Below, piece after piece: positions 10,442 through 60,700 of a DNA stretch of 64,000 nucleotides. The stretch covers positions 5,208,125 to 5,272,124 of the forward strand of contig OW818658.1 of assembly GCA_942492815.1 (NCBI GenBank), read 5' to 3'. Position numbers and translations under genes: made by a program. The stretch is from Candidatus Hydrogenedentales bacterium. Lineage in GTDB: Bacteria; Hydrogenedentota; Hydrogenedentia; Hydrogenedentales; JAEUWI01. Each line of letters begins with the position of its first letter. The stretch's first letter is position 1. Under the pieces are notes generated by a model that saw only the letters and a list, made by a program, of their open reading frames with translations, was not told the DNA's origin and did no database searches.

Positions 10442-10475
10442 GGCCACGTGCAGAATGCACGTGGCCATATTTTTT
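10442..10475 (+). terminator. Rho-independent terminator of the SDR-SDR-wrbA operon
   Basis: Perfect hairpin GGCCACGTGCA-gaa-TGCACGTGGCC followed by ATATTTTTT, 14 nt after the wrbA stop. Confidence 0.75.
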
Positions 10476-10476
10476 A

Positions 10477-10586: not shown

Positions 10587-10600
10587 CAGGAAATCTATCG

Positions 10601-24600: not shown

Positions 24601-24620
24601 GAACTTTTCCTCTCGTTTCC

Positions 24621-25001: not shown

Positions 25002-25030
25002 TGAAGGAGGATATTGTGGGCCCAGGGCAA

Positions 25031-27612: not shown

Positions 27613-27887
27613 CGATCCCGATACCCCTTTCCATAAATTGGCTGCGGCGTAGTATCCGGGACCCCGTCGGAAAGAATCAACAAGGTGCCGCCCAACAGGG
27701 GCTCAGGCATTCCTGCCTGAGACTGGGCTCACCCAGACATGGAAAGGCCCGGCGAGTATGTAAGGCGATCTGGGATCACAACGTCGTGTTCTCGAATGCC
27801 GAGACTTGCGCACACGCCCACAGGCCTGTCGAATGGCAACGTGAGCGCTGTCTCAGACAGGAATGTCTAAGCCCCTTGGGACCGCAC

Positions 27888-27927
27888 CCCGCGCCACGAT
27901 GCGACGTTGTTCCGCGAGGGGTGGGAG
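27888..27927 (-). pseudogene. Truncated silent copy of the hsdS 3' conserved region (cassette fragment 1)
   Basis: Minus-strand reading GTTLPPLAEQRRIVAR, then diverges into a GACAGGAATGTC hairpin motif and stops. Confidence 0.65.
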
Positions 27928-28258
27928 GGTGGTACCTCGAAGGGCCGGAAGGCGTTAGCCACGAAGTGGCGGCAGTTTGTAGCCTGGGGTGGAGCGAGGC
28001 ACGAGCGCAACCCCAGGATCACCAAACAAACACATCGAATCCGCGAAGCGGATGCCAGATTGCGATAACCCCGCTCTGCCATCCGCCGCAGGCGGATTCA
28101 ACCAGTGGGGGATTCGGACCTGGGGCTGAAGCCCCAGGCTAATGACTGATGTCCACTTCGTGGACTAAGAAAACGCTCGGAGAACACCGTCCCCTGTGCC
28201 GTCTTTCCCATATTCCTGGTTCACTCGTTCCCAATTCGTAATTCATAATTCATAATTC
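27928..28258. repeat. Family-1-like structured repeat element, tandem unit 1 downstream of hsdS
   Basis: Contains TAGCCACGAAGTGGCGGCA hairpin, CCTGGGGTGGAGCGAGGCACGAGCGCAACCCCAGG hairpin and mirrored GTCCACTTCGTGGAC / CCTGGGGCTGAAGCCCCAGG hairpins. Confidence 0.7.
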
Positions 28259-28353
28259 TCAATTCGTCAGTTCACTGACGCCCGCCTCCAACTGGCCCAC
28301 CAGCCCCATCAGCTCCTCCACCCGCGCCACGATGCGACGTTGTTCCGCCAGGA
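28259..28353 (-). pseudogene. In-frame silent copy of the hsdS 3' conserved-region cassette (fragment 2)
   Basis: Minus-strand translation AVRGTTFPLLAEQRRIVARVEELMGLVGQLEAGVSELTN-stop; differs from the hsdS C-terminus by a 15-codon in-frame deletion and a few substitutions. Confidence 0.7.
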
Positions 28354-28689
28354 GCGGAAAAGTGGTACCTCGAACGGCCGGAAGGCGTTAGCCACGAAGT
28401 GGCGGCAGTTTGTAGCCTGGGGTGGAGCGAGGCACGAGCGCAACCCCAGGATCACCAAACAAACACATCGAATCCGCGAAGCGGATGGCAGGTCACGAAG
28501 ACCATGCTCTGCCATCCGCTTCGCGGATTCAAAGAGTGGGGCATTCGGACCTGGGGCTGAAGCCCCAGGCTAATGACTGATGTCCACTTCGTGGACTAAG
28601 AAAACGCTCGGAGAACACCTCCCCCTGTACCGTTTTCCCCATATTCCTGGTTCACTCACACCCAATTCGTAATTCATAGTTCATAATTC
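28354..28689. repeat. Family-1-like structured repeat element, tandem unit 2 directly abutting the hsdS stop
   Basis: Near-identical to 27928-28258; includes a 22-bp perfect inverted repeat GAATCCGCGAAGCGGATGGCAG / CTGCCATCCGCTTCGCGGATTC. Confidence 0.7.
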
Positions 28690-30264: not shown

Positions 30265-30676
30265 TGTACCCCCAGGGACTGACGCGCGCAGGCGCACTTG
30301 TCGCGAGCGGCACAGACCAGGCGGTCAATCGGCGATGGTGAAAGCGGCAGGCACGCCCATGCGCGTGGCTGTCCCGTCGTGAGGGAGATGCACGCGATAC
30401 TCAAAGACAGGCCCGGTCCGCGACACGCCCCCTGAATACGGGCGTCGCGCGTGCGTCGAGGGCGCTCGGGCCACGACGGGACAGCCACGGACGTTGAAAT
30501 ACCTGTTGCTCGTAAACGACCCCCGTCAATCCATGGTGCCTTTGCTACCGGAATACACCGGTCCGCGTCAGTCCCTGTGAGACTGCCCTTCACACCATCG
30601 CAGGCCCCTCGCAGGCAAGTCGCATCGGCGACTGACGCGACGCCACGGGCACGGGAAAGCCAACCGGAGCGGCCAG

Positions 30677-30865
30677 ACAAAGGAGCTTGGACATTCCTGT
30701 CCGAGACAAAGCCTGCGTTACAAATTGACAGGCCCGCTGGCATGTGCGAAACCTCCGCTATCAAAAATCGGGACTTTGGCACGCCTGGCTTTACAGACAA
30801 CTTCACAGGGCCCTTCGGTGTTGGCGCAGGCGCTGTCTCGGACAGGAATGTCCAAGCTCCTTTGT
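30677..30865. mobile_element. MITE-like element, 189 bp with 32-bp perfect terminal inverted repeats
   Basis: ACAAAGGAGCTTGGACATTCCTGTCCGAGACA at 30677-30708 and exact reverse complement at 30834-30865; related solo motif at 27845-27872; no ORF inside. Confidence 0.65.
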
Positions 30866-30913
30866 ACCGCGTATCGAAGCTGCGCGTAATACTCCCCGAA
30901 AACGAGTAGCCTC

Positions 30914-32350
30914 TCATCGCGTCAGCGCCTCCATCAATTGCGCCTTCAATGCTTCCCGGGTCTCGGCGATCTGCGCCAGGAGCTTTTCGTATTCCGGCAG
31001 GAGTTCGTCCACGTTGCCGGGGCCGGTGTCGGTGCTGTGGGGGTTCTTCAGGTCGAGGTTGTAGTTGCCCGCCTGGATGGCCGCCACGGAGACGCGCCAG
31101 GCCTGCTCGTTTTCCACGCGCTTCTTCCACCACTTTTTCTCGGGCGCGAATTCCTCAATGCGGATGGGCTTGGTCTTGTTGTAGCTCTTGGCGCCGGGGG
31201 GATAGGGGTGCTCGTAGTACCAGACCTCCTTCGTGGGCTTGCCCGCGTCGAAAAAGAGCAGATTGGTGCGGATGCCGGTGTAGGGGCTGAAGACGCCGTT
31301 GGGCAGGCGCACGATCGTGTGGAGGTTGAACTCGGTCAGGAGCCGCTCCTTGATGCGGGTCTTCACGCCTTCGCCGAAGAGGGTGCCGTCGGGCAACACG
31401 AGCCCCGCGCGGCCGCCAGGCTTGAGCAGCTTCATCAGCAGCACGAGGAAGAGATCGGCTGTTTCTCGCGTGCGGAATTCCGTCGGGAAGTTGGCCTCGA
31501 TCCCGTCTTCCTCCATGCCGCCGAAGGGCGGGTTGGTGACGATGACGTCCACGCGCTCGGTGGCCTTCCAGTCGCGCAGTGGCCGGGCGAGGGTGTTGTC
31601 GTGGCGCACGTTGGCGGGCACGTCGATGCCGTGGAGCATGAGGTTGGTCATGCAGAGGACATGGGGCAGGTGCTTCTTCTCGATGCCGTGGAAGCAGTCC
31701 TGGATCGCGCGCTCGTCGGCCTCGGTTTTGGCCTGCTTGCGCAGGTGCTCGATGGCGCAGGTGAGGAAGCCGCCGGTGCCGCAGGCGGGATCGAGGAGGG
31801 TCTCTCCGAGGCGCGGGTTGACCTGCTCCACGATGAACTGGGTGACGGCCCGGGGCGTGTAGAACTCGCCCGCGTTGCCCGCGGACTGGAGGTCTTTCAG
31901 AATGCGCTCGTAGATGTCGCCGAACATATGGCGGTCGTCGGAGGCGTTGAAATCGATGCCATTGATCTTGTTGATCACCTGGCGCATGAGGGTGCCGTTT
32001 TTCATGTAGTTGTTGGCGTCTTCAAAGCTCATGCGGATGAGCCCGGCAATCTTGTCCTGGCCGCCGGTGAGGGCCTTGAGCTTGGGCAGGAGCGTGTTGT
32101 TCACAAAATCGAGGAGGGCCTCGCCCGTGATGCCTTCCTCGTCCTTCGCCCAGTGGCTCCAGCGCAGGTGCGGGGGCAGGGGCGACTTGTAGTGGTCGCG
32201 GATGAGTTCGAGTTCCTGCTCGCGGTCATCGAATATTTTCAGGAAGAACATCCAACCGAGCTGCTCCAGGCGCTGGGCGTCGCCATAGGTGCCGGCGTCC
32301 TTGCGCATGATGTCCTGGATGGATTTTACGATATTGGAAACGTTGGACAT
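30914..32350 (-). CDS. hsdM: Type I restriction-modification DNA methyltransferase subunit HsdM
   Basis: N6-adenine methyltransferase motifs (TNPPFG, LDPACGTGGFL); 478 aa. Confidence 0.95.
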   Translation of the reverse strand: MSNVSNIVKSIQDIMRKDAGTYGDAQRLEQLGWMFFLKIFDDREQELELIRDHYKSPLPPHLRWSHWAKDEEGITGEALLDFVNNTLLPKLKALTGGQDKIAGLIRMSFEDANNYMKNGTLMRQVINKINGIDFNASDDRHMFGDIYERILKDLQSAGNAGEFYTPRAVTQFIVEQVNPRLGETLLDPACGTGGFLTCAIEHLRKQAKTEADERAIQDCFHGIEKKHLPHVLCMTNLMLHGIDVPANVRHDNTLARPLRDWKATERVDVIVTNPPFGGMEEDGIEANFPTEFRTRETADLFLVLLMKLLKPGGRAGLVLPDGTLFGEGVKTRIKERLLTEFNLHTIVRLPNGVFSPYTGIRTNLLFFDAGKPTKEVWYYEHPYPPGAKSYNKTKPIRIEEFAPEKKWWKKRVENEQAWRVSVAAIQAGNYNLDLKNPHSTDTGPGNVDELLPEYEKLLAQIAETREALKAQLMEALTR

Positions 32351-32394
32351 GGATTGGGCTTGCTTCTACGTGCGCGATTGCACGGGTGAGTTTA

Positions 32395-32467
32395 CAGGGA
32401 CGGCAGGGACATCAGGGACAACAGGAAGAGAGTATTCTGCCGTCCCTGATGTCGCTGCTGTCCCTGT
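32395..32467. promoter_or_regulatory. Imperfect inverted repeat with GGGAC heptad repeats between hsdR stop and hsdM start
   Basis: CAGGGACGGCAGGGACATCAGGGACAACAGG ... CTGCCGTCCCTGATGTCGCTGCTGTCCCTG in the 143-nt hsdR-hsdM spacer. Confidence 0.45.
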
Positions 32468-32493
32468 GAATGAGGGCGGATAATCCGCACATT

Positions 32494-34860
32494 TTACGCC
32501 ACCCTCCGGTACAGCTCGGCTTCGAGGGCCTGGATCGCCTCCAGGTACTGTTCCTTGCCGCCGAAGAGTTTCACGATCTCCGTGACGGTGCCGAATTGGG
32601 TCAGCGGAGCCACTTTCAATATTTCCAGGGACTCCACGCTCTGGATGCCGCCGTCGGCGAACTTGTCCAGCAGCGCGTCGAGCACGGCGCGCACCTCCGC
32701 GCCGTATTTCGCGAAGACGTGGCGCTTGCGCACGTTCTCCGCGCGCTCGCGCCGGGTGAGGGGCGGCTCGTCGAAGGCCACGTGGCAAATGAGGTCGAAG
32801 GCGTCGTAGTCGCGGCCCACCTGCTCGGCGAGTTCGTCCAGGAAGACGCCCTTGCCCGCGAGCTCTTCGAGGATGGCCTGCTTCCGCTCGGCATCGCTCC
32901 AAACGGTGAGAAATTCCGTCAGCGTGGCGAAGGACTTTTGCACGGTGCGGCGGCTGTAGTCGCGGAGGGATTCGGTGATGAGCTTGCCGTCGGCGTCGAG
33001 GTATTGCACGCGCTCGGTGACGATCTTTACTTCCACGTTGTCCACGTAGTACTTCTTCGGCCGTCCGCTGTCGCCCTCACCGTCGAGGGGCCAGGGCTCA
33101 CCGTCAATGTACACCTCGCCCTCTTCCTGAGCGTTCGTCGAACTTTCGTCCGGCGGCACCACGGAATCGTCGGGCCCGGGTACATAGATCTGCACCGGAT
33201 CGCCGTCGAAATCCGGATCGGCGAAGAGGGCCGTGGCGCGCTTGAAATCCATGATAGTGAAATAGAGCTTGCCGTAGTCCTCGCGGATGCGGGTGCCGCG
33301 ACCGATGATCTGCTTGAACTCGGTCATGGAGGCGATGCGCTTGTCGAGGACAATGAGGTGGCAGGTCTGGGCGTCAACGCCGGTGGACATGAGCTGGGAG
33401 GTGGTGGCGATGACCGGATAGTCCCGGCTGGGATCGATGAAATTGTCGAGCTGGGCCTTGCCCTCGGGGCTGTCGCCGGTGATGCGCATGACGTATTTGT
33501 CGTTGGCGGCGGCGAGGTCGGGGTTGGCGTTGACCAGGGCCTGGCGCATCCGCTCGGCGTGATCGATGTCGTCGCAGAAGACTATCGTCTTGGCGAAGCG
33601 GTTGGTGGCGTAGAGGAACTCGGTGATTTTCGCGGCCACGAGGGCGGTGCGCTTTTCGAGGACGAGGTTGCGATCAAAGTCGAGGATATTGTACTCGCGA
33701 TCTTCGATTTCGTGGCCGTATTTGTCGGTCTGGCCGCGCTCGGGCCGCCAGCCGTCGAGGTCTTTGTCGATGCCGACGCGGACCACCTTGTAGGGCGCGA
33801 GGAAGCCGTCGGCGATGCCTTGCTTGAGGGAGTAGGTGTAAATGGGTTCGCCGAAGTACTCGATGTTCGACACGTCGCGCGTTTCTTTGGGCGTTGCGGT
33901 GAGGCCGATCTGGGTGGCGGAGCTGAAGTACTCCAGGATCTGCCGCCAGTTGGCGTCGTCGGCCGCGCTGCCGCGATGGCACTCGTCGATCACGATGAGA
34001 TCGAAGAAGTCGGGCGAAAACTGTTTGTAGATGTTCTGATCTTCCTCGGTGCCGCTGACGGCCTGGTAGAGGGCGAGGTAGATCTCGAAGGCCTTGTCCG
34101 CCGTGCGGTTCGTGATCTTGGTCATGGCCTTGCCGAAGGGCTTGAAGTCGTTGCTCTTGGTCTGGTCGGCGAGGATGTTGCGATCGACGAGAAAGAGGAT
34201 GCGTCTGCGCGCCCCGGCCTTCCACAGCCGCCAGATGATCTGGAAGGCGGTGTAGGTCTTGCCAGTGCCGGTGGCCATAACGAGGAGGATGCGCTTCTCG
34301 CCGCGCGCGATGGCGTCCACGGTGCGGTTGATGGCGACGAGCTGGTAGTAGCGCGGGGCGCGGTCGGAGCCGTCGTCGTAGTAATCCTGGGTGGTCACGG
34401 CTTCCTGCGCGTCGGTGTAGCCTTTGGCCTGGCGATAGCGGGCCCAGAGTTCTTCGGGCGTGGGGAATTGATCGAGGGGGATCTCGCGCTCGACTGTGCC
34501 TCCGGTGCCAGTGCGGTCGTGCTCCAGAAAGGTGTCGCCGTTGGAGCTGTAAGCAAAGGGCACGTCGAGGATCTCGGCATACTCGAGCGCCTGCTGCATG
34601 CCCGCGCCCACAGCGTGGTTATTGTCCTTGGCCTCGACGACGGCAATGGGCATGTTGGGCTTGTAGAAAAGGAGGTAATCGGCTTTTTTCGCCTCGCCCC
34701 GCGACACGGACTTGCCCCGGACGATCACGCGCCCCTTGGTGAAGTGATACTCTTCGAGCATCTGGGTCATCACGTCCCACTTCGATCCGCCGGGTCCGAG
34801 GATCGCCGGCGTGATGAACTTGGTGCGGATGTCGGTCTCTGTCAGTGCCTTTTTGTCCAC
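32494..34860 (-). CDS. hsdR: Type I restriction enzyme endonuclease/helicase subunit HsdR
   Basis: 788 aa; N-terminal nuclease region, SF2 helicase motifs (ATGTGKT Walker A, DECHR); canonical HsdR N-terminus. Confidence 0.95.
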
Positions 34861-34953
34861 GTGTGCCCCTGTGTGCCTGTTTTGTATGAATCCCGCCCGG
34901 GCTCGGTGGGGCTATTGTACATGGCACCGGGCCGAAGTGGGAAGCGGGGCGGG

Positions 34954-35967
34954 CTATTTCGCCTTTTCCTCGATCCGCTTTGCTTCCCGCTCCAGTTCAG
35001 CCATTTCGTCGCTGGCGGCCTCTTCATCCAGTCTTCGCCGGTTGAACTTTTCGTACTCCCCTTCCGCGCGGGATTTTGCGAGGTCTGCGCTGATGGTGCC
35101 CGCGTTCTCCAGAACTTCCCGCCCGTTGAACTGGAGGAAGGCATTGAGCTTCCCCTCCCAATCGGCCATGTGCATGGGCTGCTTTCGCTCCGCCTGGTCT
35201 TCGGCGTAGTCGAGGTACATCGTTACGATTCGGTTGAGTCCACGCACTTCCTCCTCGGTGAGGTAGTTTTTCGCGATGGCCACGTCGCCCTTCCGAACTT
35301 TTGCGCCTTTCCAGGTGGTCAGGCCCATGTTGGGCTGGGTGGCGTCCACGCGTTCCACGATCAGCTCGGCAGCCGTGTGGCCGTGGGTCGCCCAGTGAAG
35401 TTTGTTCTGCACTGCCTTGAAGAAATGTCGGGCCTGTTCGGAGTTGGGTTCATAGTCCACAGCGAGGGCGTAGATATCCTGAATCTTCCGGTAGAAGCGT
35501 TTCTCCGAAGCGCGGATATCACGGATCCGCTCCAGGAGTTCGTCATAGTAGTCCGCGCCGAGATTGCGGCCCTCCTTGAGCCGCTCGTCGTCCATGGCGA
35601 AGCCCTTGACGAGGTATTCCCGGAGCCGCTCCGTGGCCCAGCGACGAAACTGGGTGCCCCGGTGGGAGCGAACGCGATATCCGACGGCGATGATCACGTC
35701 GAGGTTGTAGTGTTTGATTGCCCGCTGGACTTCCCGCGCGCCCTCGGATTGAACTGTCAAGTATTCCTTGACAGTTGCCCCTTCGTCGAGTTCGCCTTCC
35801 TCGTAAATATTTCGAATATGGAGACTTATGTTCTGCTTGCTGCTATGAAACAAGTCTACCAATTGCGCCTGGCTGAGCCAGACGGTCTCGTCTTCCAAGC
35901 GCACGTCGATGCGCGTCTTCCCGCCCTCGGGCTGGTATATGAGGATTTCCGATTGTGGTTCCGGCAT
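34954..35967 (-). CDS. rhuM: RhuM family protein (uncharacterised, frequently linked to Type I R-M loci)
   Basis: N-terminal region ...IYQPEGGKTRIDVRLEDETVWLSQAQLVDLFHSSKQNISLHIRNIYEEGEL typical of RhuM; directly upstream of hsdR on the same strand. Confidence 0.8.
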   Translation of the reverse strand: MPEPQSEILIYQPEGGKTRIDVRLEDETVWLSQAQLVDLFHSSKQNISLHIRNIYEEGELDEGATVKEYLTVQSEGAREVQRAIKHYNLDVIIAVGYRVRSHRGTQFRRWATERLREYLVKGFAMDDERLKEGRNLGADYYDELLERIRDIRASEKRFYRKIQDIYALAVDYEPNSEQARHFFKAVQNKLHWATHGHTAAELIVERVDATQPNMGLTTWKGAKVRKGDVAIAKNYLTEEEVRGLNRIVTMYLDYAEDQAERKQPMHMADWEGKLNAFLQFNGREVLENAGTISADLAKSRAEGEYEKFNRRRLDEEAASDEMAELEREAKRIEEKAK

Positions 35968-36237
35968 GCGGCCCTCCCGTTGTCCCGTGCCCCCGGTGCT
36001 TGACGTCGCTGGTGGCGGCGCTCACTGGAATCCATACTGCCGCACGGGATATTGAAAGCTTAGCGCAGGCTGCGGGGATGGCGCAACGCAAACGGGAGCG
36101 CGGGTTTTCCTACCCGCGTATCGGGCAACTTAGTTGCGCGATCAAGTGAGGCGGGGCTACGGGCGGAACCGAATGCGCCGTTGGCGCAACCACGTGTAGG
36201 AAGACCCGTGCTCCCGGTTTCCGTCCTGAACTCCCCC

Positions 36238-43353: not shown

Positions 43354-46300
43354 TTATCGCGCCAGACGGAATCCGTTGATACCGTCGGAGTGGTTCGGGT
43401 CGTAGCGGAAGCGTCGGGACGAGCGCTGGTTCTCTTTTTTCACCAGTCGGGCCCAGGCGCCGCCGCGGGCAACCTTGTTGGTGCCGACTTCCGGCCCGCG
43501 CGGATTGTCCGTCACGTTTTGACTGTAATACGTGTCCAGATACCAGTCATCGCACCATTCAACCACATTGCCCGCCATGTCATAAGCCCCGATGGGGCTG
43601 GGGCTGTCCACGGTCTGGATATTGCCGTTGGGGCTGATATTGATTCCATTGAACCAGCCCACCGGCGAGGTATAGGACTCTTTCGCATCCTGGAGGATGC
43701 CCAGCGGGTTGATGAAGCTCGTGCTGCCGTAATCCGGATTGGGGCGGAAGGCGTCCACGTGGAAGTTGACCCGATCCCGCGTGGTCAGCTCGTCGCTGGT
43801 GATCGGATAGATCCAGTGCTTCTCACCGTCCCAGGCGGCCGCCCGCTCCCATTCGGCCTCGGTGGGCAGGCGGTAGCCATTCTTCGTGAAGTCGCCGGTC
43901 CACGTGTCCGTATCGTAGACCGGTTCGAGGCCGGAACGCTCGGAAAGCCAGTTGGCAAAGAGCACGGCGCCATACCACGTGGGCTCGGTCACCGGATGCG
44001 TCGCCTTGTCGTAGAAGGTGCCGGCCGGGATCCCTTCAAGGCTTTTCGTCACGAAGGCCTTGGAAGTCTGATCGTAGTCAATCCCGTCCTCCGTGAGGGC
44101 GAAAGCGAAGACCACCCGAGGCAATACGCTGTCGTAGAACCATGCATGCTCGGGGAAGCCACGCCACGTGGCGCCGTTGGGCCGCTTGAGCAAATCGCGG
44201 GAAGGATGGTGCATGTAATTCATGAACTCGGCATATTGGGCGTTGTTCACCTCAAATTTGCCGATCTCGTAGGCGTCCAGCGTAACGTCGCGGCGGGGAA
44301 GCTCATCCGACTGATCGAAAAGCGCGTCATCGCCGTCTTCCCGGGGCCCCATGGTAAAGGTGCCCGCGGGCACGGGAATCATGACCACATCTTCAAAGAA
44401 GGACGCGCTGAAGGTGCTCGTGGCGACCACCTCGGTGTCCGCGCGAGGATTGTCGGTGCTGCCATCGCTCCACTGGGAGAAGAGGTAGCCCTCATCGGGG
44501 ACCGCGGTCACCGCTGCCGTACTCGCGCCCACCGCAACATCCTGAACGGCGACACCGGCAATGTTCCCATTTTCCCCGGCCTCGTAGGTCACCGTAAGTG
44601 TCGCAGAGAAATTGGCCGTGACGGAAATATCGGCGCTGACATCCAGATCCGTGCGGGGATTGTCGAGAACGCCATCGCTCCAGCCGTCGAAGCCAAATCC
44701 GTTGGCGGGTACCGCCGTCACCGCGCGGCCATCCGCACCATCGCGGATGGTCTGGCTCGTGGGCCCGGTCAGGCTCCCGTTGCTGCCCGCGATATAAGTC
44801 ACGGTGAACAGCTCAACAAACTGGGCGGTCACCGTCACATCACTGATTACATTAACGTCGGTACGGGGATTCTGCTTCGTGTTGTCACTCCATTTGTCGA
44901 ACACGAAACTGGCATTGGCGACGGCCGTCACGGCCGTGCCCGAACCGCCTGTATTCACAATCTGGGTCGTCGTGCCGGTCAGCGTTCCGCCTTCGCTGGC
45001 CAGATACGTCAGGGTATAGGCCGGCACGAACTCCGCCGTTACGCTCAGGTCGCTTGTGGGGCCTGTGTCCACCCGGGGATTTTCCGTGCGACCATCGCTC
45101 CACTGATCGAAGCCATAGCCCTCATTGGGCACAGCGGTAACCGCCGTACCTGTGCCGCCGCTGCCGATCACCTGCTCCGTATCCCCCGTCAGGGTTCCAT
45201 TCGAGCCCGCCGTGTAAACCAAATCGATCGCCGTGGCGAAGTTCGCGGTCACGGTAACATCACCGTCCACGTCAACGTCCGTTCTGGGATTGTCCGAGCG
45301 CCCATCACTCCAGCCCGCAAAGCCGAAGGTCGCATTGGGCACCGCTGTCACCGCCGTGCCGTCCTCGCCGTCATTCACGATCTGCGAGGTCGCGCCCGTG
45401 AGGGAGCCGTTGGCCCCGGCAACATACGTCAGCGTGTACTGGGCCAGGAAATTGGCCGTAACCGTCACATCCCCATCCACATCGAGGTCCGTGCGGGGGT
45501 TGTCCTCGCTGCCATCGCTCCAGCCAAGAAAGATGAAACCCTCGCCGGGCACCGCGTTGACGGGCGTGCCATCGTTCCCGTCGATGACGGACTGCTGGGT
45601 CACGCCTTCCAGGGTGCCACCCGCGCTGGCGGTGTAGGTGAGTTGGAAGACTTCCCGGAAGTTGGCCGTAACCGCCAGGTCCGCCGTCACGTTAAGATCC
45701 GTGCGCGGATTGTCCGTGCGACCGTCGCTCCAGTCTTCAAAGACGAAGCTGTCGTTGCGCACGGCGGTGACGGGCGAGCCGCTGCCGCCCTCCGGCACGA
45801 GCTGGTTGGCGTTGCCCGCGATCGTGCCGCCCGCGCCCGCGGTGTAAGTGAGCGCGAAGAGTTCGGCAAAGTTGGCGGTCACGGAAATGTCCGCGCCCAC
45901 CGTCCGGTCACGGCGGGGATTGAGGGTGCTGCCATCGCTCCAGTTGACGAAGGCGTAACCGTCCAGAGGCACCGCCGTCACGGCGGAACCGTCCGCGCCG
46001 GGGGCCACACTCTGGGGCGTAGTGCCTTCGATGGTGCCGCCGGGGCCCGCCGCATAGGTCAGGGAAAAGGGATCGCCCCCATCGCAGGGGCCTTCAAAAC
46101 CACCCAGCGCAATAATCTGATCGAGGCGGTTACGGCTGACCTGCAGGGTCTCCGCCGTCGGCGTGCCTTCGCCGAAGAGCAGGCACACGGTAACAAGGTC
46201 GCCCCCATCATCCTCGGGTGTGCCGGGAAGATCGAGCACCACAATCGTGTGCGGTGCAATGGAACTGTCCAAGCCGGCCGTTCCCACCACGGCGACATCG

Positions 46301-47061
46301 GTGTTGATTGCCAGAATCGCGGGGGTGCCGCTCGGGGTGCCATAGTCGCCCGGCACGAAAATATCGGCGTCGCTGTAGTCCACCGTGTACCGGGCCGTGC
46401 CGGCTGCGAGGACGAAGGTCTCGGCGGCACTGTCCGTGCTCTCGATGGTGCCTTCGATCCGGGTATGGGAGACAGATTCCCGGAGATCGGCGGAAAGCGT
46501 CGGCGCCAGCGTATAGTTGCCGCCCTCGCCTTCGAGCACGTTGAGGCCACCCAGTTCGAGATAAAGCATGCCCGCGCTGTCGGCGACAATCTCAAAATCA
46601 AAGTCCAGGGTGTAGGTTCCGCCGTCAGACAGTGCCAGCGTGATGGTCTCCAGAGGATTGCTGACCAGCACCATGCTGGCCTGGGAGATTACGAGTTCCA
46701 CGCCGGTATACGCGCCAGCGGGGACTGTCGTATCCGAAAGGAGCGCCGCCACGGTGGTCAGATCTAAGAGATCCACCGTTTTCGCGCTGGGTAGGACACT
46801 GGTGGACACCGTATCAGCGCCATCCTGCGAAAGAACGCGAATCGCCTGGATTCGAGCCTCCAGACTCAGAATGGCCGCGTCGTCCACCGGGACGAGTCCC
46901 TTGGGGATCAATTTCCCGGCGTCAAGCGCCCCCGTGGCGAGGAGAACCTTGAGGCTCTCTTCCTCGGGTGTCGGGGGCGGACAACTGGTAAGGGCAATCG
47001 AGCTCAGCACGGCCAAAGTAAGAAAAAATGAACAGCGTCGAAAATTAATATAAACGTGCAT
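43354..47061 (-). CDS. Giant lipoprotein: N-terminal DUF4382-like region, 8 divergent InlB B-repeats, C-terminal formylglycine-generating-enzyme (FGE)-sulfatase domain
   Basis: 1235 aa; lipobox ALTSC; 8 repeats of ~75 aa with F-x-x-WSDG-x-x-x-NPRTD...VTANF; C-terminal FGE-type motifs (MAGNVVEWCDDWY, RGGAW). Confidence 0.85.
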   Translation of the reverse strand: MHVYINFRRCSFFLTLAVLSSIALTSCPPPTPEEESLKVLLATGALDAGKLIPKGLVPVDDAAILSLEARIQAIRVLSQDGADTVSTSVLPSAKTVDLLDLTTVAALLSDTTVPAGAYTGVELVISQASMVLVSNPLETITLALSDGGTYTLDFDFEIVADSAGMLYLELGGLNVLEGEGGNYTLAPTLSADLRESVSHTRIEGTIESTDSAAETFVLAAGTARYTVDYSDADIFVPGDYGTPSGTPAILAINTDVAVVGTAGLDSSIAPHTIVVLDLPGTPEDDGGDLVTVCLLFGEGTPTAETLQVSRNRLDQIIALGGFEGPCDGGDPFSLTYAAGPGGTIEGTTPQSVAPGADGSAVTAVPLDGYAFVNWSDGSTLNPRRDRTVGADISVTANFAELFALTYTAGAGGTIAGNANQLVPEGGSGSPVTAVRNDSFVFEDWSDGRTDNPRTDLNVTADLAVTANFREVFQLTYTASAGGTLEGVTQQSVIDGNDGTPVNAVPGEGFIFLGWSDGSEDNPRTDLDVDGDVTVTANFLAQYTLTYVAGANGSLTGATSQIVNDGEDGTAVTAVPNATFGFAGWSDGRSDNPRTDVDVDGDVTVTANFATAIDLVYTAGSNGTLTGDTEQVIGSGGTGTAVTAVPNEGYGFDQWSDGRTENPRVDTGPTSDLSVTAEFVPAYTLTYLASEGGTLTGTTTQIVNTGGSGTAVTAVANASFVFDKWSDNTKQNPRTDVNVISDVTVTAQFVELFTVTYIAGSNGSLTGPTSQTIRDGADGRAVTAVPANGFGFDGWSDGVLDNPRTDLDVSADISVTANFSATLTVTYEAGENGNIAGVAVQDVAVGASTAAVTAVPDEGYLFSQWSDGSTDNPRADTEVVATSTFSASFFEDVVMIPVPAGTFTMGPREDGDDALFDQSDELPRRDVTLDAYEIGKFEVNNAQYAEFMNYMHHPSRDLLKRPNGATWRGFPEHAWFYDSVLPRVVFAFALTEDGIDYDQTSKAFVTKSLEGIPAGTFYDKATHPVTEPTWYGAVLFANWLSERSGLEPVYDTDTWTGDFTKNGYRLPTEAEWERAAAWDGEKHWIYPITSDELTTRDRVNFHVDAFRPNPDYGSTSFINPLGILQDAKESYTSPVGWFNGINISPNGNIQTVDSPSPIGAYDMAGNVVEWCDDWYLDTYYSQNVTDNPRGPEVGTNKVARGGAWARLVKKENQRSSRRFRYDPNHSDGINGFRLAR

Positions 47062-50277: not shown

Positions 50278-50291
50278 GCACGTAAATCTGA

Positions 50292-50331
50292 ATCGCCGCG
50301 CTCCACGATGCTGGAGCGCGGCGATTTTTTG
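50292..50331 (+). terminator. Rho-independent terminator after the speH / DHS-like operon
   Basis: ATCGCCGCGCTCCA-cgatgc-TGGAGCGCGGCGAT followed by TTTTTTGT. Confidence 0.8.
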
Positions 50332-50336
50332 TCTGA

Positions 50337-50855
50337 GGGGACGTACCGCCGCAAATAAACCCCGTAAAGGGCACACCGCCCTACGCCCTATGAGTCCATT
50401 CAACCGAGGGACGTTCACGCCAACGCGGCGGCATGTCCCTGGGGATGCTGGAATCACGACGCGGAATAAATCCAGGGCGCTCCATTACATCCGCCGGGAC
50501 GGGCACGCGCGCTGCCAGGAGCATCGCAAATAACAGTCATAGGAATGCGTGGAGTGACCCGCGCCCACACAAGTCGCGGGCGCGAGTCCGTCCCAGGGGA
50601 CGTACCGCCGACAATATTCCCCGTGAAGGGCACACCACCCTGCGCGCTCTGGATCCATTCAACCGAGGAACGTTCACACCAAGGCGGCATGTCCCTGGGG
50701 ATACTGGAATCGTGACGCGGAATAATCCAAGACCCTCCATTACGTCCACCGGGACGGGCACGCGCGTTGCCGGGAGCGTCGCACATAACCGTCATAGGAA
50801 TGTGCGGAGTGACCCGCGCCCGCGCCCGCAGCCGTCGCGGGCGCGAGTCCGTCCC
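50337..50855. repeat. Family-2 structured repeat, two tandem units (~258 + 261 bp)
   Basis: Units about 85% identical; each has a 5' GGGGACGTACCGCC box, a central GGCGGCATGTCCCTGGGGAT(G/A)CTGGAATC(A/G)TGACGCGG box and a 3' GGGACGGGCACGCGCG...CGCGGGCGCGAGTCCGTCCC box. Confidence 0.8.
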
Positions 50856-50856: not shown

Positions 50857-51699
50857 TTACGCGCCCCACTTCTCGCGGATCATCTTCAGGCCGTTCGTGG
50901 CGAGGTACTCTTCGCTCGGAGCCATGACGCGCCAGATGCAGGTGGCACCGGCAAGATCGGGGATCCAGGAGCCAAAGGCTTCGATTACCATCCAGCCGTC
51001 GTAGCCGATTTCCTTGAGTGCCGCGAAGCAGGTGTCGTAGTCGATGTGGTCGTCGCCGGGTGTCGCACGGTCGTTCGCGGAGATATGCACGTGGTTGATG
51101 CAGTTGCCACCGGCGCGGATCGCCTCGGCGAAATTCTTCTCTTCGATGTTGGCGTGGAAGGTGTCGAACATCTCCCCCACCGCTTCGATGCCAACGGCGC
51201 GCACAAGATTCGCGGAATCCGCCTGGGTGTTGAGGAAATACGTCTCGAAGCGGTTCAAGGGCTCGATGGCGAGTTTGATGCCTTTCTCCGTGGCGTGGGC
51301 ACCCACTTCACGGAAGCCTTGGATCGCGCGATCCATTTCATCAGGCACGGGGCCGCGTCCGATGAGCCGACCCACCGGGCTGTACAGGGGGCCGCAGAGG
51401 GCCTCGGCGCCCAGCACCACACAAGCGTCTATGCAGGCTTTGAGATGGACGACAGCCGCCTTGCGCTCGCCTTCGTCTTCACCGATCAGGTTCGTGCCGG
51501 CGGGCAACACCGTCACCGCCGTCCGGCCCAGGCCCAGCGCGTCGCACTTGGCGGCCAGCTTAGCCCAGGGGGATCCATCGGCCGAAAACATGGGAAACTC
51601 CACGCCGTCGAAGCCCCAGCCTTTGATCTGTTCCAGCAGGGGCAGGTGGCTCTCGTCCGCGCCACCGGTCCACAGCAACAAGTTCATCCCGACTTTCAT
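50857..51699 (-). CDS. Sugar phosphate isomerase/epimerase (xylose-isomerase-like TIM barrel)
   Basis: 280 aa; TIM-barrel family pattern (...AIEPLNRFETYFLNT..., ...HVHISANDR...). Confidence 0.85.
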   Translation of the reverse strand: MKVGMNLLLWTGGADESHLPLLEQIKGWGFDGVEFPMFSADGSPWAKLAAKCDALGLGRTAVTVLPAGTNLIGEDEGERKAAVVHLKACIDACVVLGAEALCGPLYSPVGRLIGRGPVPDEMDRAIQGFREVGAHATEKGIKLAIEPLNRFETYFLNTQADSANLVRAVGIEAVGEMFDTFHANIEEKNFAEAIRAGGNCINHVHISANDRATPGDDHIDYDTCFAALKEIGYDGWMVIEAFGSWIPDLAGATCIWRVMAPSEEYLATNGLKMIREKWGA

Positions 51700-51831
51700 G
51701 GGTTATTCTCCTTCTTGAGGGTGCGTCCATCTTTGGAGCGCCCGGGTCTCTTGGGTATGCCCGGCGAGCGGAATCGCCGCCCGCCGAAGGGCCCCGTCAC
51801 TATACGGATGGCCGGGGCTGAAGGCAAACTT

Positions 51832-51924
51832 GAAGGATGAAGGTTAAAGGATGAAGGTTAAAGGATGAAGTATGAAGTGAGCGAGGAACCGCACCCGTTC
51901 TTCAGCCTTCATCCTTCATCCTTC
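51832..51924. promoter_or_regulatory. Direct repeats AAGGATGAAGGTTA (x2.5) facing inverted CTTCATCC repeats in a divergent promoter region
   Basis: GAAGGATGAAGGTTAAAGGATGAAGGTTAAAGGATGAAG ... CTTCATCCTTCATCCTTC between the isomerase start and the PSCyt-family gene start. Confidence 0.45.
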
Positions 51925-52116
51925 AAATTTCATCCAACCCTACCAATTGGTCAGATCGGGCAAATACGACCCGATCCTCGCCATTTTACCATGACACCGG
52001 TGTCTTACGCAGTTTTATTGATATTTTGGCGAAGTCCATCAAAGAAAACTTTATTTCTCCTTGCAACTTTTCCCACCAATAGGGGATGATATACAGAATA
52101 ACGTAGGAGTAGCATC

Positions 52117-55527: not shown

Positions 55528-55625
55528 GCGGGAGCACGGACATTCCTGTCCGTGTCCTCGTGCAACGGAGTTGCACGATACGCGGGTAAGAAAACCCGCG
55601 CTCCCGAGTACTGGAGTAAAACCAA

Positions 55626-57065
55626 ATGAGTCACCATAAACCAACCGCCGACGACTTCGTCTTAAACCGGCGCGATTTCCTCAAGCGCACCGGCATGGGC
55701 TTTGGCGCGATGGGCCTGGCCAGCACCCTGCTCGGCGGCAGCACGAACGCCTTCGGCGCGCTGAATCCCACCGCGCCGCAGCGGCCCCACTTCGAGGGCA
55801 AGGCGAAGCGCGTGGTCCATATCTTCCACAACGGCGGCCTCTCCCAGGTGGACTCCTTCGACCCGAAGCCCTCGCTGGCGAAGTACGCGGGCCAGAACCT
55901 GCCCAACTTGAATCTCCGCACGGAGCGGCCCACCGGTGCGGCTTTCCCTTCACCCTTCACCTTCAAGGAATATGGTGAGAGCCGCATTCCCGTGAGCAGT
56001 CTCTTCCCCCACCTGGGCGAGTGCGTGGACGACATGTGCATCGTGCGCTCCATGTGCGCGGACGTGCCGAATCACGAGCCGTCGCTGTTGTTGATGAATT
56101 GCGGCGACGCGCGCCAGATTAGGCCGAGCGTAGGCTCGTGGGTCACCTATGGCCTGGGCACGGAAAACCAGAATCTGCCCGGTTTCATCTCCATGTGCCC
56201 CAGCGGCTACCCGATCCAGGAGTCACAGAACTGGCAGTCGGGTTTCCTCCCCGGCGTGTACCAGGGCACCTACATAGATACGCAGCACACAGAGATGGAA
56301 AAGCTCATCGCCCACATCGAGAACAACTACCAGTCGAGCAAATCGCAGCGCGAACAACTCGACCTGCTCAGCGAATTAAACCACCGCCACCTCGCCGCAC
56401 GCGACCAGGACAGCGAACTGGAGACGCGCCTTCAGAGCTTCGAACTGGCCTACCGTATGCAGCTCGACGCAACGGACGCCTTCGACATTTCCCGCGAACC
56501 GGAAAGCATCCGCGAGATGTATGGGCCGGGCGTGCATGGGCGTCAGTGTCTCATCACGCGGCGGCTGCTGGAGCGGGGCGTGCGCTTCATCCAGCTCTGG
56601 CACGGCGCGGGCCAGCCCTGGGACAGCCACGACGACATCGAGAAACTCCACGGCAACCTCGCGAAGGAATGCGATCAGGGCATCGCGGCGCTTTTGAAGG
56701 ATTTGAAACAGCGCGGCATGCTGGACGAGACGCTGGTGCTTTGCACGGGCGAATTCGGCCGCACGCCCACCGTCGAACTGCCCACGCCCGGCGCAAACGC
56801 GGGCAAAGTGAACGGCCGCGATCACAACCACTACGGCTTCACAGCCTGGATGGCGGGCGGCGGCGTGAAGGGCGGCCACATCCACGGCGCGACGGACGAG
56901 TTCGGCTTCCAGGCGGTGGAAAACCGGGTCCACGTCCACGACCTCCACGCGACGATGCTCCACTTACTGGGCTTTGACCACGAAAAACTGACCTACCGCT
57001 ACGCGGGCCGCGATTTCCGACTGACGGACGTACACGGGCACGTCGTGCGGGACATTATTGCGTAG
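55626..57065 (+). CDS. DUF1501 domain protein (sulfatase-like fold) with twin-arginine signal
   Basis: 479 aa; Tat motif NRRDFLKRTGMGFGAMGLA; canonical partner of the DUF1549/DUF1553 protein. Confidence 0.9.
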   Translation: MSHHKPTADDFVLNRRDFLKRTGMGFGAMGLASTLLGGSTNAFGALNPTAPQRPHFEGKAKRVVHIFHNGGLSQVDSFDPKPSLAKYAGQNLPNLNLRTERPTGAAFPSPFTFKEYGESRIPVSSLFPHLGECVDDMCIVRSMCADVPNHEPSLLLMNCGDARQIRPSVGSWVTYGLGTENQNLPGFISMCPSGYPIQESQNWQSGFLPGVYQGTYIDTQHTEMEKLIAHIENNYQSSKSQREQLDLLSELNHRHLAARDQDSELETRLQSFELAYRMQLDATDAFDISREPESIREMYGPGVHGRQCLITRRLLERGVRFIQLWHGAGQPWDSHDDIEKLHGNLAKECDQGIAALLKDLKQRGMLDETLVLCTGEFGRTPTVELPTPGANAGKVNGRDHNHYGFTAWMAGGGVKGGHIHGATDEFGFQAVENRVHVHDLHATMLHLLGFDHEKLTYRYAGRDFRLTDVHGHVVRDIIA

Positions 57066-57073
57066 GGGTACCA

Positions 57074-57720
57074 GGGGACGTACCGCCGCAAAGGCACTTG
57101 GGCAGACGCGGTAAACACGAATCGTCATTGCCACTCGATAGGGACAAAGCCCGCTCTGGTGCGGCGGCATGTCCCGGTGGATGTTGCAACGTGACGTGAA
57201 CACTTCGCGAAGCTTTCGGTAATGGACCCGGTGGATGAAGCCCGACTGGATCCACAAAAACGGTGATGTGGAGCGTTCGCGTGTACTCCACACTTCCACT
57301 GGGACAGGCACGCGCGTTGTCGTAAACTTTGCTCGTATTCGTCATCCTGAATAATCAATATGAACCACGCCCGCAGTAGTCGTGGGCGCGAGTCCGTCCC
57401 CGGGGACGTACCGCCGCAAAGGCACTTGGGCAGACGCGGTAAACACGAATCGCCATGCACACTCGATTTTGACAAAGCACGCTCTGGTGCGGCGGCATGT
57501 CCCTGTGGATGTAGAATCATGACGTGAACGCAACATGTAGTCAACTTGCGGAGAACGCTCGACCGGATTCGCAAAATCGGCGATCTGGAGCGTTCACGCG
57601 CCTTTCGCACATCCACTGGGACGGGCACGCGCGTTGTAAGGTACTTTGCCCACATTCGTCATCCTGAATACTTCAATGTGCACCCCGCTCGCAGTAGTCG
57701 TGGGCGCGAGTCCGTCCCCC
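57074..57720. repeat. Family-2 structured repeat, two tandem units (~328 + 319 bp)
   Basis: Both units start GGGGACGTACCGCCGCAAAGGCACTTGGGCAGACGCGGTAAACACGAATCG and end CGCAGTAGTCGTGGGCGCGAGTCCGTCCCC; shared boxes with 50337-50855. Confidence 0.8.
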
Positions 57721-57721: not shown

Positions 57722-60700
57722 TCAGCCGCTCAGCGCATGAACAAACAACGTCTGCTTCGCCACTTTCGCTTTTGCCAACTCTACCAGATGCTGGTGGTGT
57801 GTAAAGTAAATCACCTGGGTGCGCTCGGACAGCGTGGCGAGCACGTCGAGTGCGGCGGTCGCGCGGGCGTCGTCGAAGTTCACGAGGATGTCGTCGAGAA
57901 TGAAGGGAATGGGCGCGTGGCGTTCGAGGTGGCGCTCCAGGCTGGCAATGCGCAGGGCCAGATAGAGCTGGTCCGCCGTGCCCTCGCTCATGCCCGCCAC
58001 TTCGACAAGCGATGCAGTTTCCGCGCGAACACCGAGGAGCACGTGGCGATCCCGATCATCCACATCGGCGCGAAGCTCCGCGAAAGATCCCAGCGTCAAC
58101 GTCTGAAAGATTTCACCCGCCCGGGAGAGCAACGGCTCCTGATTCGCCGCTCGGTAACGCTCGATAGCGCGATTCAGCGTGAAGTGGGCGACCCTAAGAC
58201 GGGCATACTCTTCGGCATCTTCCGCAATAGTCGCAATGAGGGACTGGGTCTCCACCGCCGCATCGGCGGCCTGGCTTCCGCCGTTCATCTGGGCCAGTCT
58301 GTTCTCGAGTGTGCCGATAGAGATAAGCAATGCGTCGTGTTCTATTTTCAACTCATCCAGTCGCTCTTCAAGTGCCAGCAGGGCTGGCATGAGAGCGTCT
58401 GAATCTTCCGCCGCCACCAACTCGTCTATGGACGCTATTGCAATCCCAGGGTACAGGACAAGGAGGCGCTTTTCGATATCGCGCAGTGCGTCCTCGATTC
58501 GCTGCCGCTCGTTGGAGCCCTTTTCAGCGTCGGGCAGCGCGGCGGCATCTTCCACGCGCGCTTCGACGCACAACGCGGCTAACTCACCTTCCGCGCGTGC
58601 CAGAGCCGCCTCGGCGGCGCGATGGCGCTCCTCTTCATCGTGCAATTGCTTCGTCAAGCGTTTCTGCTCGCCATTGGCCTCGCGATTCTGCTTCAATGCC
58701 TGATAGAGGGCCCGCACGATGGCGTATTCGTCCCCTTCGACCGCCAGTCCAACAGTCGATGCCAGGGCCCGCGCTTCGCTACGAAAATTTGCGTCGTCGC
58801 GCAGGATGAAATCCACGCGCTGCTGAAGCTCCACTGAACTTGCGTGCTTCGTCAGAACCTCGTCGATCGCCTCCACGATGGCGAGGGCTTCCGCGCCGAC
58901 GGCATCGGGACGGGCACCGATAGCCTGCATCATCGCGGACCAGGCATCGCGCCAGGCCTCCTCCTCTTCCCGCGCGCGGGCCAGGGCCCCTTCGGCGGCG
59001 GGGCAGTCGACGCGCTCGAGCTTGTCGAGCGTCTTTTCCATATGGGCACGTTGCTGGGTGATCTCGCGCTGTCGCGCCAGCGCGACCTCGGCGTGATCGA
59101 TCAGGGCCGCCAGCGACGATTCAGCAGGCAGGCAATCAAGGCCGCAGCCTTCGAGGACCGCCTCCAACTCGGCGCGCTGTGTAACGTTGGAGGCGCGCAA
59201 GGCCTTCAATGACTTCGCGGTTTCATGGAGCGCGGCGATCTCGGATTGAAGTGCATCGAAGGACTTGCGCCAGGCCGCCATCTCCGCCGGTGTACGGGGC
59301 TCGATATCGGCAGGCTGCCACAGAGCCTTCCACGCTTTTTCCAGCTTTTGATGGCTCGCGAGTGTGGCAGCATGGACGGCGTGCTGCTTCGCGCACTTCT
59401 CCCCAAGGGCCGCAACGGCGCTTTCCAGTTGCGCGCGCTGCGCCACGCGCTCCGCTTCCGTACGAAGGCGATCCGACAGCTCGTCAGCATCCGTCACGAG
59501 CGCCGCCACGGCATCGGCCAGATTCTGGACCTCGGGGTGGCGTGCGCGAACGTCTTCCACGATAGCGCTTGCTTCGGGAGTGGCGACCTGGTCGGGCGGC
59601 GTAGCCCCTTCCCAGGCGGCGCGGGCGAAGGCCCAACTCTGCTGACGCAGACCGCGGGCTTCCTCCAGTGCTTCGAGGGAAGGCGCGTGGTGCTCGCGCT
59701 GATAGGCCGCCAGATCGGATTCGGCCCGCGCCCGCTCCGCCTCGATCGCCGCCAACTGCTTCTCCGCCTCGGCGGCCGCGCGAATGGATTCGCCCATATC
59801 CAGGCGAAATTGCTCGATACTCTCCGCCGATGGCACGGAAAGGAGCTCCAAGGCCTCCATGGTGCCCGACCAATGTCCCAGACGCGCGATGCCCGACGCA
59901 ATCAATTGGTGAAGGCTCTCCGCGCGGGCTTCATGATCGCGCAGCGCACTTTCCCTGTCTCCCGACTGACGACTACGCTTCAAGGCGGCATCAAGGAGCG
60001 CGGTATCCGTGGCGACGCCCACAACGGCAAGTTCCGCCACGGCCAGTTCCCGTTGGCGTTGCAACTGATCGAGAGCGACGTTTGCGTGGTGCAGCCCATC
60101 GCGACAGGACTGGCCGCGCCGGTCCAGCTCCGCCAGGCGCTGCTTCTGTCCCGGCGGCAGGCGCAATTCTTCGGCCTGCTCAATCGACCAGTGAGGGCGC
60201 AGGTGATGCAGCGTGCGCTCCGCTTCATCCCGCAGGCGCGCCAGTTCGGGCGCGAGCTTGCGCTCGAGGTCGTTGCGCGCTTTTTCATTGACGCCGAGGT
60301 CCTGATGCAGCTTTTCGATCTCGTCTTCCCGCGCGAGCAGCAGGGCATTGACGTGAAGGGGCTCCAACTCCCGCTTCAACCGCGCAATGGCCGCGCCAGT
60401 CTGCACAAGGGTCTCGCCGGCATTCCGGGCGGCGGTCTGCGCGTGGATCCGCCGCTCGGAAAAATCCGGGGGCAACAAAACCGTTGCGGCCAGGGGCGCG
60501 AGGGCCTCCAGCAATGTAGCCCGTTGTGATACAAGCGGCAGGGCCTCGTGGATGCGCTTCAAGCGAGCCTGCTCCGCACGGGCCTCGCGGAGTCGATCGT
60601 CCAGTTCGGCGCGGCGCGCCTCGGCGGCCTTCCTTTCGCCATCCAGGGCTTCCCACTCGCGCGACGAGAGCTGCGCGAATTTCACCGTCTTGCGGGCAAT

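Follow-up and report, generated by a model that had tools for sequence, protein, structure and literature searches.

What occupies the convergent intergenic region between a DUF1501 gene and an SbcC-like ATPase gene in a bacterium of an uncultured phylum, and what keeps it there? The region belongs to a 64,000-nt stretch of DNA, referred to here as the window, from a Candidatus Hydrogenedentales bacterium (GenBank assembly GCA_942492815.1, contig OW818658.1, positions 5,208,125 to 5,272,124 of the forward strand), and an earlier note, made from the sequence alone, described its contents as two tandem units of a repeat family that expands locally and prefers convergent 3' intergenic sites. On the best reading of the evidence, this family behaves like the repetitive extragenic palindromic (REP) repeats and bacterial interspersed mosaic elements (BIMEs) of proteobacteria, and not like an active jumping element. 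With moderate confidence, it is regarded here as an undescribed REP/BIME-like element of Candidatus Hydrogenedentota, which is maintained by the host at gene 3' ends and is likely transcribed into RNA stems, with a function that we infer.

Architecture and distribution of the repeat

The tandem pair is real, and comprises a unit of 328 bp (57074-57401) followed head to tail by one of 318 bp (57402-57719), which together occupy the convergent gap from stop to stop, as had been claimed, leaving 9 nt on the left and 3 nt on the right. In a repeat search, the left parts of the units (57068-57201 and 57396-57529) agree at 89% and the right parts (57233-57353 and 57550-57670) at 78%, with middle segments unlike in both length and sequence; Tandem Repeats Finder (TRF), run on the window, did not detect this pair. 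Four short boxes recur in the window far above chance expectation, all on the + strand: box A (GGGGACGTACCGCCG) and box B (GGCGGCATGTCCC) in five exact copies each, box D (GGGCGCGAGTCCGTCCC) in four exact copies, and box C (GGGACGGGCACGCGCG) in four copies at up to one mismatch.

Further members were retrieved by scanning a species-representative genome collection for the A...B box pair, which yielded at least 64 loci. Among the 64 loci listed, 62 lie in three metagenome-assembled genomes (MAGs) of Candidatus Hydrogenedentota (29, 15 and 18), which amounts to at least 15-29 loci per MAG among the matches listed. The syntenic relative of the window is MAG JBHEKR bin.359, whose loci L055 and L017 are 87-92% identical to it, which places the window in a Hydrogenedentota genome. 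Two matches were rejected as different repeats and not counted, namely L040 (Rhodothermales MAG), with short GGACATGCC palindromes, and L054 (Verrucomicrobiales MAG), with nested perfect inverted repeats. The L054 repeat (L054:1955-2115) carries similar motifs, GGGACGTGCCGCC and GGGACAGAGCCGCC, with a ~65-nt spacer, and may be a related family in another phylum. A metagenome scan for compensatory box variants, with A or C demanded at stem position 7, returned one match, which was judged a chance one (GC-rich, coding-looking, no tail motif). Several MAG contigs end inside the element (L055:1-20, L031:1-5, L015:1-30 and L038:6630-6659), indicating that the repeat breaks short-read assemblies and that its copy number in MAGs is underestimated. 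A literature search for Hydrogenedentes repeats found nothing relevant.

The anatomy of the family was derived from 72 copies with exact A/B boxes, including those of the window. The unit is a dyad, a layout that the earlier note did not recognise: two inverted paralogous modules of ~101 nt (H1 and H3) meet at their tails through a hairpin linker (H2), and the ends of each module form an imperfect inverted repeat of 15 nt, its outer and inner boxes, ~72 nt apart. H1 has GGGACGTACCGCCGC as its outer and GCGGCGGCATGTCCC as its inner box, measures 98-104 nt with a mode of 101 (72 copies), and is followed by H2 and H3 in 43/72 copies. H2 starts with NGTGGATG, ends with CATCCACN and is closed by GTGGATG/CATCCAC; in these 43 copies its length falls into classes of ~55, 83, 108 nt and above, over a range of 43-293 nt. 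H3 runs from GGGAC(A/G)GGC(C/A)CGCGC to GCGCG(G/A)GTCCGTCCC over 99-105 nt (43 copies), with GGGACGGACCCGCGC as its outer box. Read on the opposite strand, it has the layout of H1 (outer box, ~72 nt, inner box, then GTGGATG) and is matched by the H1 profile (nhmmer), which identifies it as a paralogue. At three loci (L035, L037 and L061) the second module is literally an inverted H1, and the remaining solo copies consist of H1 followed by the conserved tail GGATGCTGGAATCGNGAYGYGAAC. The box order of a unit is outer, inner, H2, inner, outer, its ends read GGGGACG...CGTCCCC, and units are reiterated up to 2-3 times.

The pair between the DUF1501 and SbcC-like genes (the 57k pair) departs from most copies in its linkers. 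The earlier note had called its middle segment divergent and specific to the unit pair; the divergence holds, and the segment is better described as an H2 enlarged to 125 and 114 nt, compared with ~55 nt for the majority of copies. In unit 1, GTGGATG...TTCCAC arms beside the inner boxes close the linker, additional GTGGA/TCCAC hairpins lying inside, and the expanded linkers of the two units are each predicted to form a long hairpin (minimum free energy -44.9 and -44.1 kcal/mol).

The window holds further members (Table 1). A second tandem pair (the 50k pair) lies between a canonical intrinsic terminator and the stop codon of a xylose-isomerase-like gene. The partial unit noted earlier near 24472-24600 was recovered as one module plus tail, starting 49 nt past the stop of a response-regulator gene and ending 13 nt before a different repeat of ~390 bp, which contains an Rfam Acido-Lenti-1 match. 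A diverged 101-nt module at 30275-30375 is probably an old member of the family; beyond it come a GTCGTG...CACGAC linker and a GGGACAGCCACG box, the stretch extending to 30490, just upstream of the hsdS start.

Conservation, placement and turnover

Within the family, only the boxes (four per unit) and the GTGGATG/CATCCAC arms carry information content; interiors and flanks have none. Between non-tandem, non-orthologous copies, the identity of H1 interiors has a median of 0.53, against 0.49 for shuffled sequence. Between orthologous copies in different species, the C/D boxes are identical at 74/75 positions, compared with 75% identity for H1 interiors, 68% for H3 interiors, 66% for H2 and 88% for the coding flank; the C/D boxes were not part of the retrieval pattern, so this comparison is largely free of ascertainment bias. 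Since the boxes stay intact between orthologues while the interiors diverge, they are under purifying selection in vertically inherited copies. The length of the modules is likewise tightly kept (98-105 nt), while that of H2 in the same elements varies widely. As judged from these sequence comparisons, boxes and module length are shown to be under purifying selection, with interiors that drift neutrally.

A conserved scaffold around a variable interior of fixed length might also be expected of free-standing small RNA genes, in which each unit or module would be its own regulatory RNA with the interior as a variable 'guide', and unit 1 does fold somewhat better than its shuffles (z = -2.5). We consider this extremely improbable, because no conserved promoter or terminator is present, stop codons abut the units on both sides and leave no room for their own signals, and the interiors evolve neutrally between orthologues and find no match elsewhere in the loci or in phages. 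No Rfam family fits either. Searched against Rfam 15 over the whole window, neither array gave a match at the gathering score; at E<=10 the 57k array again had no match, and the 50k array had only sub-threshold, chance-level matches to sbcD RNA (E=0.64) and a trypanosomatid snoRNA (E=2.3), so that a known RNA family was rejected. The interior as an acquired, spacer-like sequence was also rejected, since it matches no phage record and nothing elsewhere in the loci, and orthologous interiors diverge like neutral DNA.

The gene contexts of the loci were assigned with a self-trained codon-usage gene caller. Both flanks could be called for 60 arrays; the neighbouring genes are convergent at 28 of these, unidirectional at 26 and divergent at 6. 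A gene 3' end is faced by 77/108 outer-box ends, 57 of them at -1 to +23 nt relative to the stop codon, and at 12 ends a TAG stop shares its G with the outer box (TAGGGAC); only 1/24 inner or tail ends lies equally near a stop codon. Because outer ends hug stops and inner or tail ends do not, solo modules are polar, in the order stop codon, outer box, interior, inner box and tail, and in a full unit each of the convergent genes has an outer box facing it. The preference for convergent 3' intergenic sites proposed earlier thus stands for 3' ends and not for convergence as such, as the rule also holds behind unidirectional genes. The real placement rule is that the outer box adjoins the stop codon, and the 57k pair obeys it on both sides (9 and 3 nt). 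An intercistronic position is suggested at a few loci, where 13-25 nt separate the far outer box from the start codon that follows. Upstream of some outer boxes, between the stop codon and the true box, is an extra GGGAC half-site (within 15 nt at 8/110 ends, compared with 1.5% of random windows), for example at window positions 57066-57073 and at L047, L010 and L043; these may be relics of earlier boxes or small terminal duplications.

Expansion by local tandem duplication is borne out, tandem neighbours being mutually closest, with interior identities of 0.90 (57k), 0.79 (50k) and 0.83 (L038), and with D-to-A junctions between tandem units in nine arrays. Measured against the orthologous copy of the syntenic relative, the 57k units reach 0.75 and 0.77, below the 0.90 that they share, so that their duplication or homogenisation is younger than the lineage split; the relative's contig stops inside unit 1. 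Comparison of the same intergenic regions in relatives found that the tandem arrangement is not identical there, so that the refuting test set by the earlier note turned out in its favour. At the 50k locus, the syntenic MAG has only H2 and H3 in place of the two full units of the window, with the missing stretch bounded by GGGGA on both sides, and a further orthologous locus holds H1-H2-H3 in one MAG and H1 alone in the other, the break lying at the GTCCC common to the B and D boxes. Short repeats at the boxes delimit these polymorphisms, which points to recombination or deletion and not to transposition. Arrays are thus shown to grow by local tandem duplication and to shrink by deletions ending at short box repeats, and copy gain and loss are best explained as local, through duplication and recombination among boxes, to judge from these repeat-bounded breakpoints.

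The recent mobility implied by the earlier note found no such support. No near-identical dispersed copies occur within a genome, with the sole exception of a 337-bp local segmental duplicate in L004, and no target-site duplications were found, flank matches averaging 1.27 as against 1.60 in mismatched-flank controls. These results bear on the possibility that the family is a non-autonomous transposon, of the miniature inverted-repeat transposable element (MITE) or REP type, mobilised in trans by, for example, a HUH enzyme like the REP-associated tyrosine transposases (RAYTs), in which case the boxes would be terminal inverted repeats or hairpins recognised by the transposase and the siting at stop codons would be target choice. 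The imperfect inverted ends, the presence/absence polymorphism between close relatives, the extra GGGAC half-sites and the many MAG contigs that break at the element are all compatible with this, as are the conserved mismatches of the boxes described below, since mismatches in REP hairpins are needed for RAYT recognition (PMC3733652). Such mobilisation is nevertheless judged distinctly unlikely. Besides the missing target-site duplications, no conserved flanking target is seen, copies that are neither tandem nor orthologous are barely above shuffled sequence, no family copy was present in the viral contigs scanned, and transposase selection on new copies cannot explain boxes that remain intact in vertically inherited orthologues while interiors decay. 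A tblastn search with two approximate IS200/IS608 TnpA queries against the window and the 64 loci found no IS200- or RAYT-like open reading frame (ORF), a weak test as these ~530 kb are small parts of the genomes. Of the explanations considered, a trans-mobilised selfish element is the least compatible with the conservation of the boxes in orthologues.

The 15-bp stem and its possible roles

The outer and inner boxes of a module are complementary over their 15 positions except positions 6 and 8. Among 24 distinct box pairs, 87.8% of cells are paired, a share that drops to 24-53% on shifting the partner by 1-3 columns, and positions 7, 10, 11 and 12 change on both arms with pairing kept, paired changes at these same positions accounting for most differences between H1 and H3 boxes. 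Position 8 is an A.C mismatch in 24/24 of the pairs and position 6 a G.U in 22/24, and the GTA/CAT combination is present in 72/76 copies, although the search pattern permitted perfectly pairing variants too. Both non-Watson-Crick pairs keep an equal outer-to-inner register in H1, in H3 and in the diverged module at 30275-30375. This pattern points to a paired structure that would be specifically recognised, as RNA or as single-stranded DNA alike. A conserved interior fold was rejected: RNAalifold recovered only the invariant base stem, and a hint of a second short helix in a column scan (z = 5.4) failed the self-vs-cross test.

In the mechanism proposed here, transcripts of the adjacent gene or genes would carry the element as their untranslated 3' end, and each convergent transcript would meet its own module first, in outer-to-inner polarity. 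Long-range stems and the H2 hairpin would then form, and a specific factor that requires the non-Watson-Crick pairs would probably bind. The stems may act as a 3'-end barrier or as a protein-binding platform, protecting the mRNA from exonucleases; alternatively, the barrier could serve in transcription termination or in insulation between convergent genes, as has been proposed for REP/BIME elements. The RNA-stem reading is favoured because the solo modules are gene-polar and because changes in the box arms are compensated.

Several observations weigh against the RNA-stem reading. The 50k array lies behind a canonical intrinsic terminator and so is not needed for termination from that side. Some box changes are uncompensated, namely a T.T at position 10 in the H3 type of the window and an A.C at position 12 in five copies, and the conserved mismatches read as one G.U and one A.C on either strand and do not name the strand. 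Interior folding shows no excess over dinucleotide shuffles (mean z = -0.1 forward and -0.24 for the reverse complement), and a helix extending past 15 bp was not significant in the self-vs-cross helix test (p = 0.09). Retrieval of H1 by exact A/B boxes inflates their apparent conservation, so that the bias-free box evidence is that of the C/D boxes and of the window's own copies. Finally, a loop of fixed length is unusual in a simple RNA hairpin and would equally suit a measured protein-DNA contact.

The last point leads to a duplex-DNA array, in which gyrase, a nucleoid protein or another DNA-binding protein would occupy the four 15-bp boxes of a unit, or the boxes would be a transcription roadblock where genes end, and their ~86-bp centre-to-centre spacing would reflect wrapping or looping. 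The BIME-2 elements of E. coli are gyrase sites at gene 3' ends. Spacers constrained in length and free in sequence and fold agree with this model, as do the two invariant positions at which outer and inner boxes differ, in the manner of distinct half-sites. By contrast, the strong gene-relative polarity of the solo modules would be needless for a symmetric DNA site, the four box positions that differ between module types always do so on both arms with pairing kept, and the lengths span about half a helical turn, so that no strict phasing is kept. The duplex-DNA model is rated unlikely, and is kept alive because the length of an unstructured spacer is fixed and because part of the box changes are uncompensated.

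A more elaborate proposal, which we regard as highly doubtful, is that the four-box unit is a hitherto undescribed kind of host-selected, dyad-symmetric 3'-end device, which would be read from each of the two convergent genes. An outer box starting 0-10 nt past the stop codon would fall within the footprint of the terminating ribosome, and the inner boxes could pair either with the outer ones (A:B, C:D) or mutually (B:C, GTCCC-N-GTGGATG / CATCCAC-N-GGGAC), alternatives that resemble the 1:2, 2:3 and 3:4 pairings of an attenuator. In such a device, the fold would change when translation terminates, which would link translation to the formation of 3' ends or to insulation, and the invariant A.C and G.U pairs, like the measured 72-nt loop, would be features recognised by a dedicated protein.

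Related repeats and meaning of the family

The REP families described by Di Nocera et al. (2013, PMC3733652) lie, when convergent, less than 20 bp from both ORF ends, occur also near the 3' ends of unidirectional ORFs, supply TAG stops with their termini, and form inverted dimers and clusters whose spacers are alike in length and unlike in sequence; they include proteobacterial superfamilies tagged with GTAG or CGTC. The Hydrogenedentota family shares with REPs and BIMEs its multi-copy, extragenic placement, mostly between convergent or unidirectional genes and up to 20 nt from the upstream stop, to which it sometimes supplies the TAG; its imperfect palindromy with conserved mismatches; its inverted dimers and tandem clusters with characteristic linkers; its dimer spacers, alike in length and different in sequence; and its retention across related species. 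The alternating orientation, characteristic linkers and tandem reiteration of BIMEs are all found, as is the high-copy extragenic siting of REPs near the 3' ends of convergent and unidirectional ORFs. The short self-complementary palindrome and the GTAG/CGTC tag of REPs are not: the boxes are not 20-40-bp self-palindromes, each 15-mer pairing instead with a partner ~72 nt away in a 101-nt module, and there is no constant tag, TAG directly preceding GGAC in 14/72 H1 copies and GTAG in 9/72. The host phylum, Hydrogenedentota, also sets the family apart from the proteobacterial REPs. As it lacks two defining features of REP proper, the family is placed with the REP/BIME repeats as a structurally new variant.

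Other small elements are more distant. Terminal inverted repeats, as in MITEs, are present, since imperfect 15-bp boxes bound each module, whereas target-site duplication is absent; MITE copies are similar over their whole length, and here dispersed copies are not, only tandem, local or orthologous ones being alike. ERIC, Correia/NEMIS, RUP and BOX elements, which are MITE-type repeats transcribed along with genes and folding within the mRNA, resemble the family in their size (100-330 bp), terminal inverted repeats, modularity (cf. BOX A/B/C), gene-adjacent siting and polymorphism in copy number and presence, but the present family has no target-site duplication and no recent near-identical dispersed copies, and only its boxes are conserved. 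DNA uptake sequences of Neisseria (DUS) and uptake signal sequences of Haemophilus (USS) form inverted pairs downstream of genes, and are likewise short, strictly conserved and paired at gene 3' ends. They also occur singly and inside genes, without a fixed 72-nt spacing, whereas the boxes described here always form measured pairs with an invariant mismatch. Integron attC sites were rejected, as the boxes are off the RYYYAAC / GTTRRRY consensus, the interior is unfolded and no ORF lies between sites. Intrinsic terminators were rejected as well, because no terminator-like site is present inside the 57k array, canonical ones existing elsewhere in the window, such as that ahead of the 50k pair.

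Table 1. Family members in the window and the genes and terminator that flank them
Feature	Position	Strand	Description and basis
Half unit	24473-24604	+	solo H1 (24473-24575, 103 nt) and conserved tail GATGCTGGAATCGTGACGCGAGAAC; box matches
Diverged module, 101 nt	30275-30375	+	GGGACTGACGCGCGC ... GCGCGTGGCTGTCCC; mismatches at stem positions 6 and 8
Intrinsic terminator of deoxyhypusine synthase gene	50290-50333	+	16-bp stem and T6; ends 4 nt before the 50k array
Second tandem pair (50k)	50338-50855	+	units 50338-50594 and 50597-50855; H2 of 56 and 55 nt; TRF period 255
Xylose-isomerase-like TIM-barrel gene	50857-51699	-	Pfam; stop 1 nt from the 50k pair
DUF1501 gene, 479 aa	55626-57065	+	ORF and Pfam; TAG stop 57063-57065, 9 nt 5' of unit 1 outer box
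57k unit 1, H1, 101 nt	57075-57175	+	outer box GGGACGTACCGCCGC 57075-57089, variable interior, inner box GCGGCGGCATGTCCC 57161-57175
57k unit 1, H2 linker, 125 nt, expanded	57176-57300	.	sequence inspection, fold prediction
57k unit 1, H3, 100 nt, inverted paralogue of H1	57301-57400	-	inner box GGGACAGGCACGCGC 57301-57315, outer box GCGCGAGTCCGTCCC 57386-57400
57k unit 2, H1, 101 nt	57403-57503	+	box matches
57k unit 2, H2 linker, 114 nt	57504-57617	.	fold prediction
57k unit 2, H3, 101 nt	57618-57718	-	outer box end 3 nt from SbcC-like stop codon
SbcC-like ATPase gene, 1182 aa	57722-61270	-	ORF and Pfam AAA_27/AAA_23/SMC_N; TGA stop 57722-57724

The 1182-aa ORF that bounds the 57k pair on the right is assigned as SbcC/SbcD-like because of its AAA_27, AAA_23 and SMC_N domains and of a Metallophos gene upstream. 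Several other repeats occur in the window. The Rfam Acido-Lenti-1 matches (24685-24745, 28119-28166 and 28550-28597) lie inside repeats, comprising two copies of the ~390-bp repeat with 43-nt inverted ends and a 433-bp tandem repeat (18613-18989, 24617-25005 and 27888-28721), so that the motif is here part of a repeated MITE-like element and not a lone RNA gene. A stretch of 8.6 kb (27628-36233), missing from the syntenic locus L017, encodes type I restriction-modification HsdS, HsdM and HsdR and a RhuM-family protein, and is a defence island; at its site, L017 has ~300 bp with a solo H1 module. An 80-nt segment in or beside hsdS is present in four copies, 61-89% identical to the reference copy (27850-27929, 28283-28362, 28759-28838 and 29617-29696), which resemble repeats of the 3' part of hsdS and might allow specificity to be shuffled. 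Intergenic hairpins with arms built of 7-9-nt sub-repeats (CACGGAT, CAGGGAC, GAAGGAT), a different one at each locus, lie at 10469-10594, 32391-32470 and 51826-51930, and also in L014, L034 and L036. Two 49-nt inverted copies, 90% complementary, at the edge of the restriction-modification island (36093-36141) and in the PSD1/DUF1501 spacer (55558-55606), are a further small repeat family, and seven copies of a 210-nt period (44423-45984, with one 420-nt gap) inside a 1235-aa ORF (43354-47061, - strand) are a protein-domain repeat and not a DNA element.

Extragenic palindromic repeats have been characterised mostly in proteobacteria, where their function is debated, and the present family comes from an uncultured phylum. 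In practical terms, it breaks MAG assemblies and is a possible marker for Hydrogenedentota contigs. It also provides an unusually clean natural experiment, in which each genome carries dozens of old copies with interiors near random and with boxes, A.C mismatch and 101-nt length fixed. That these features are fixed even between orthologues argues for a host-level function at gene 3' ends over selfish spread, and the boxes, the mismatch and the spacing are precise elements for mutation or for use as bait for a binding factor.

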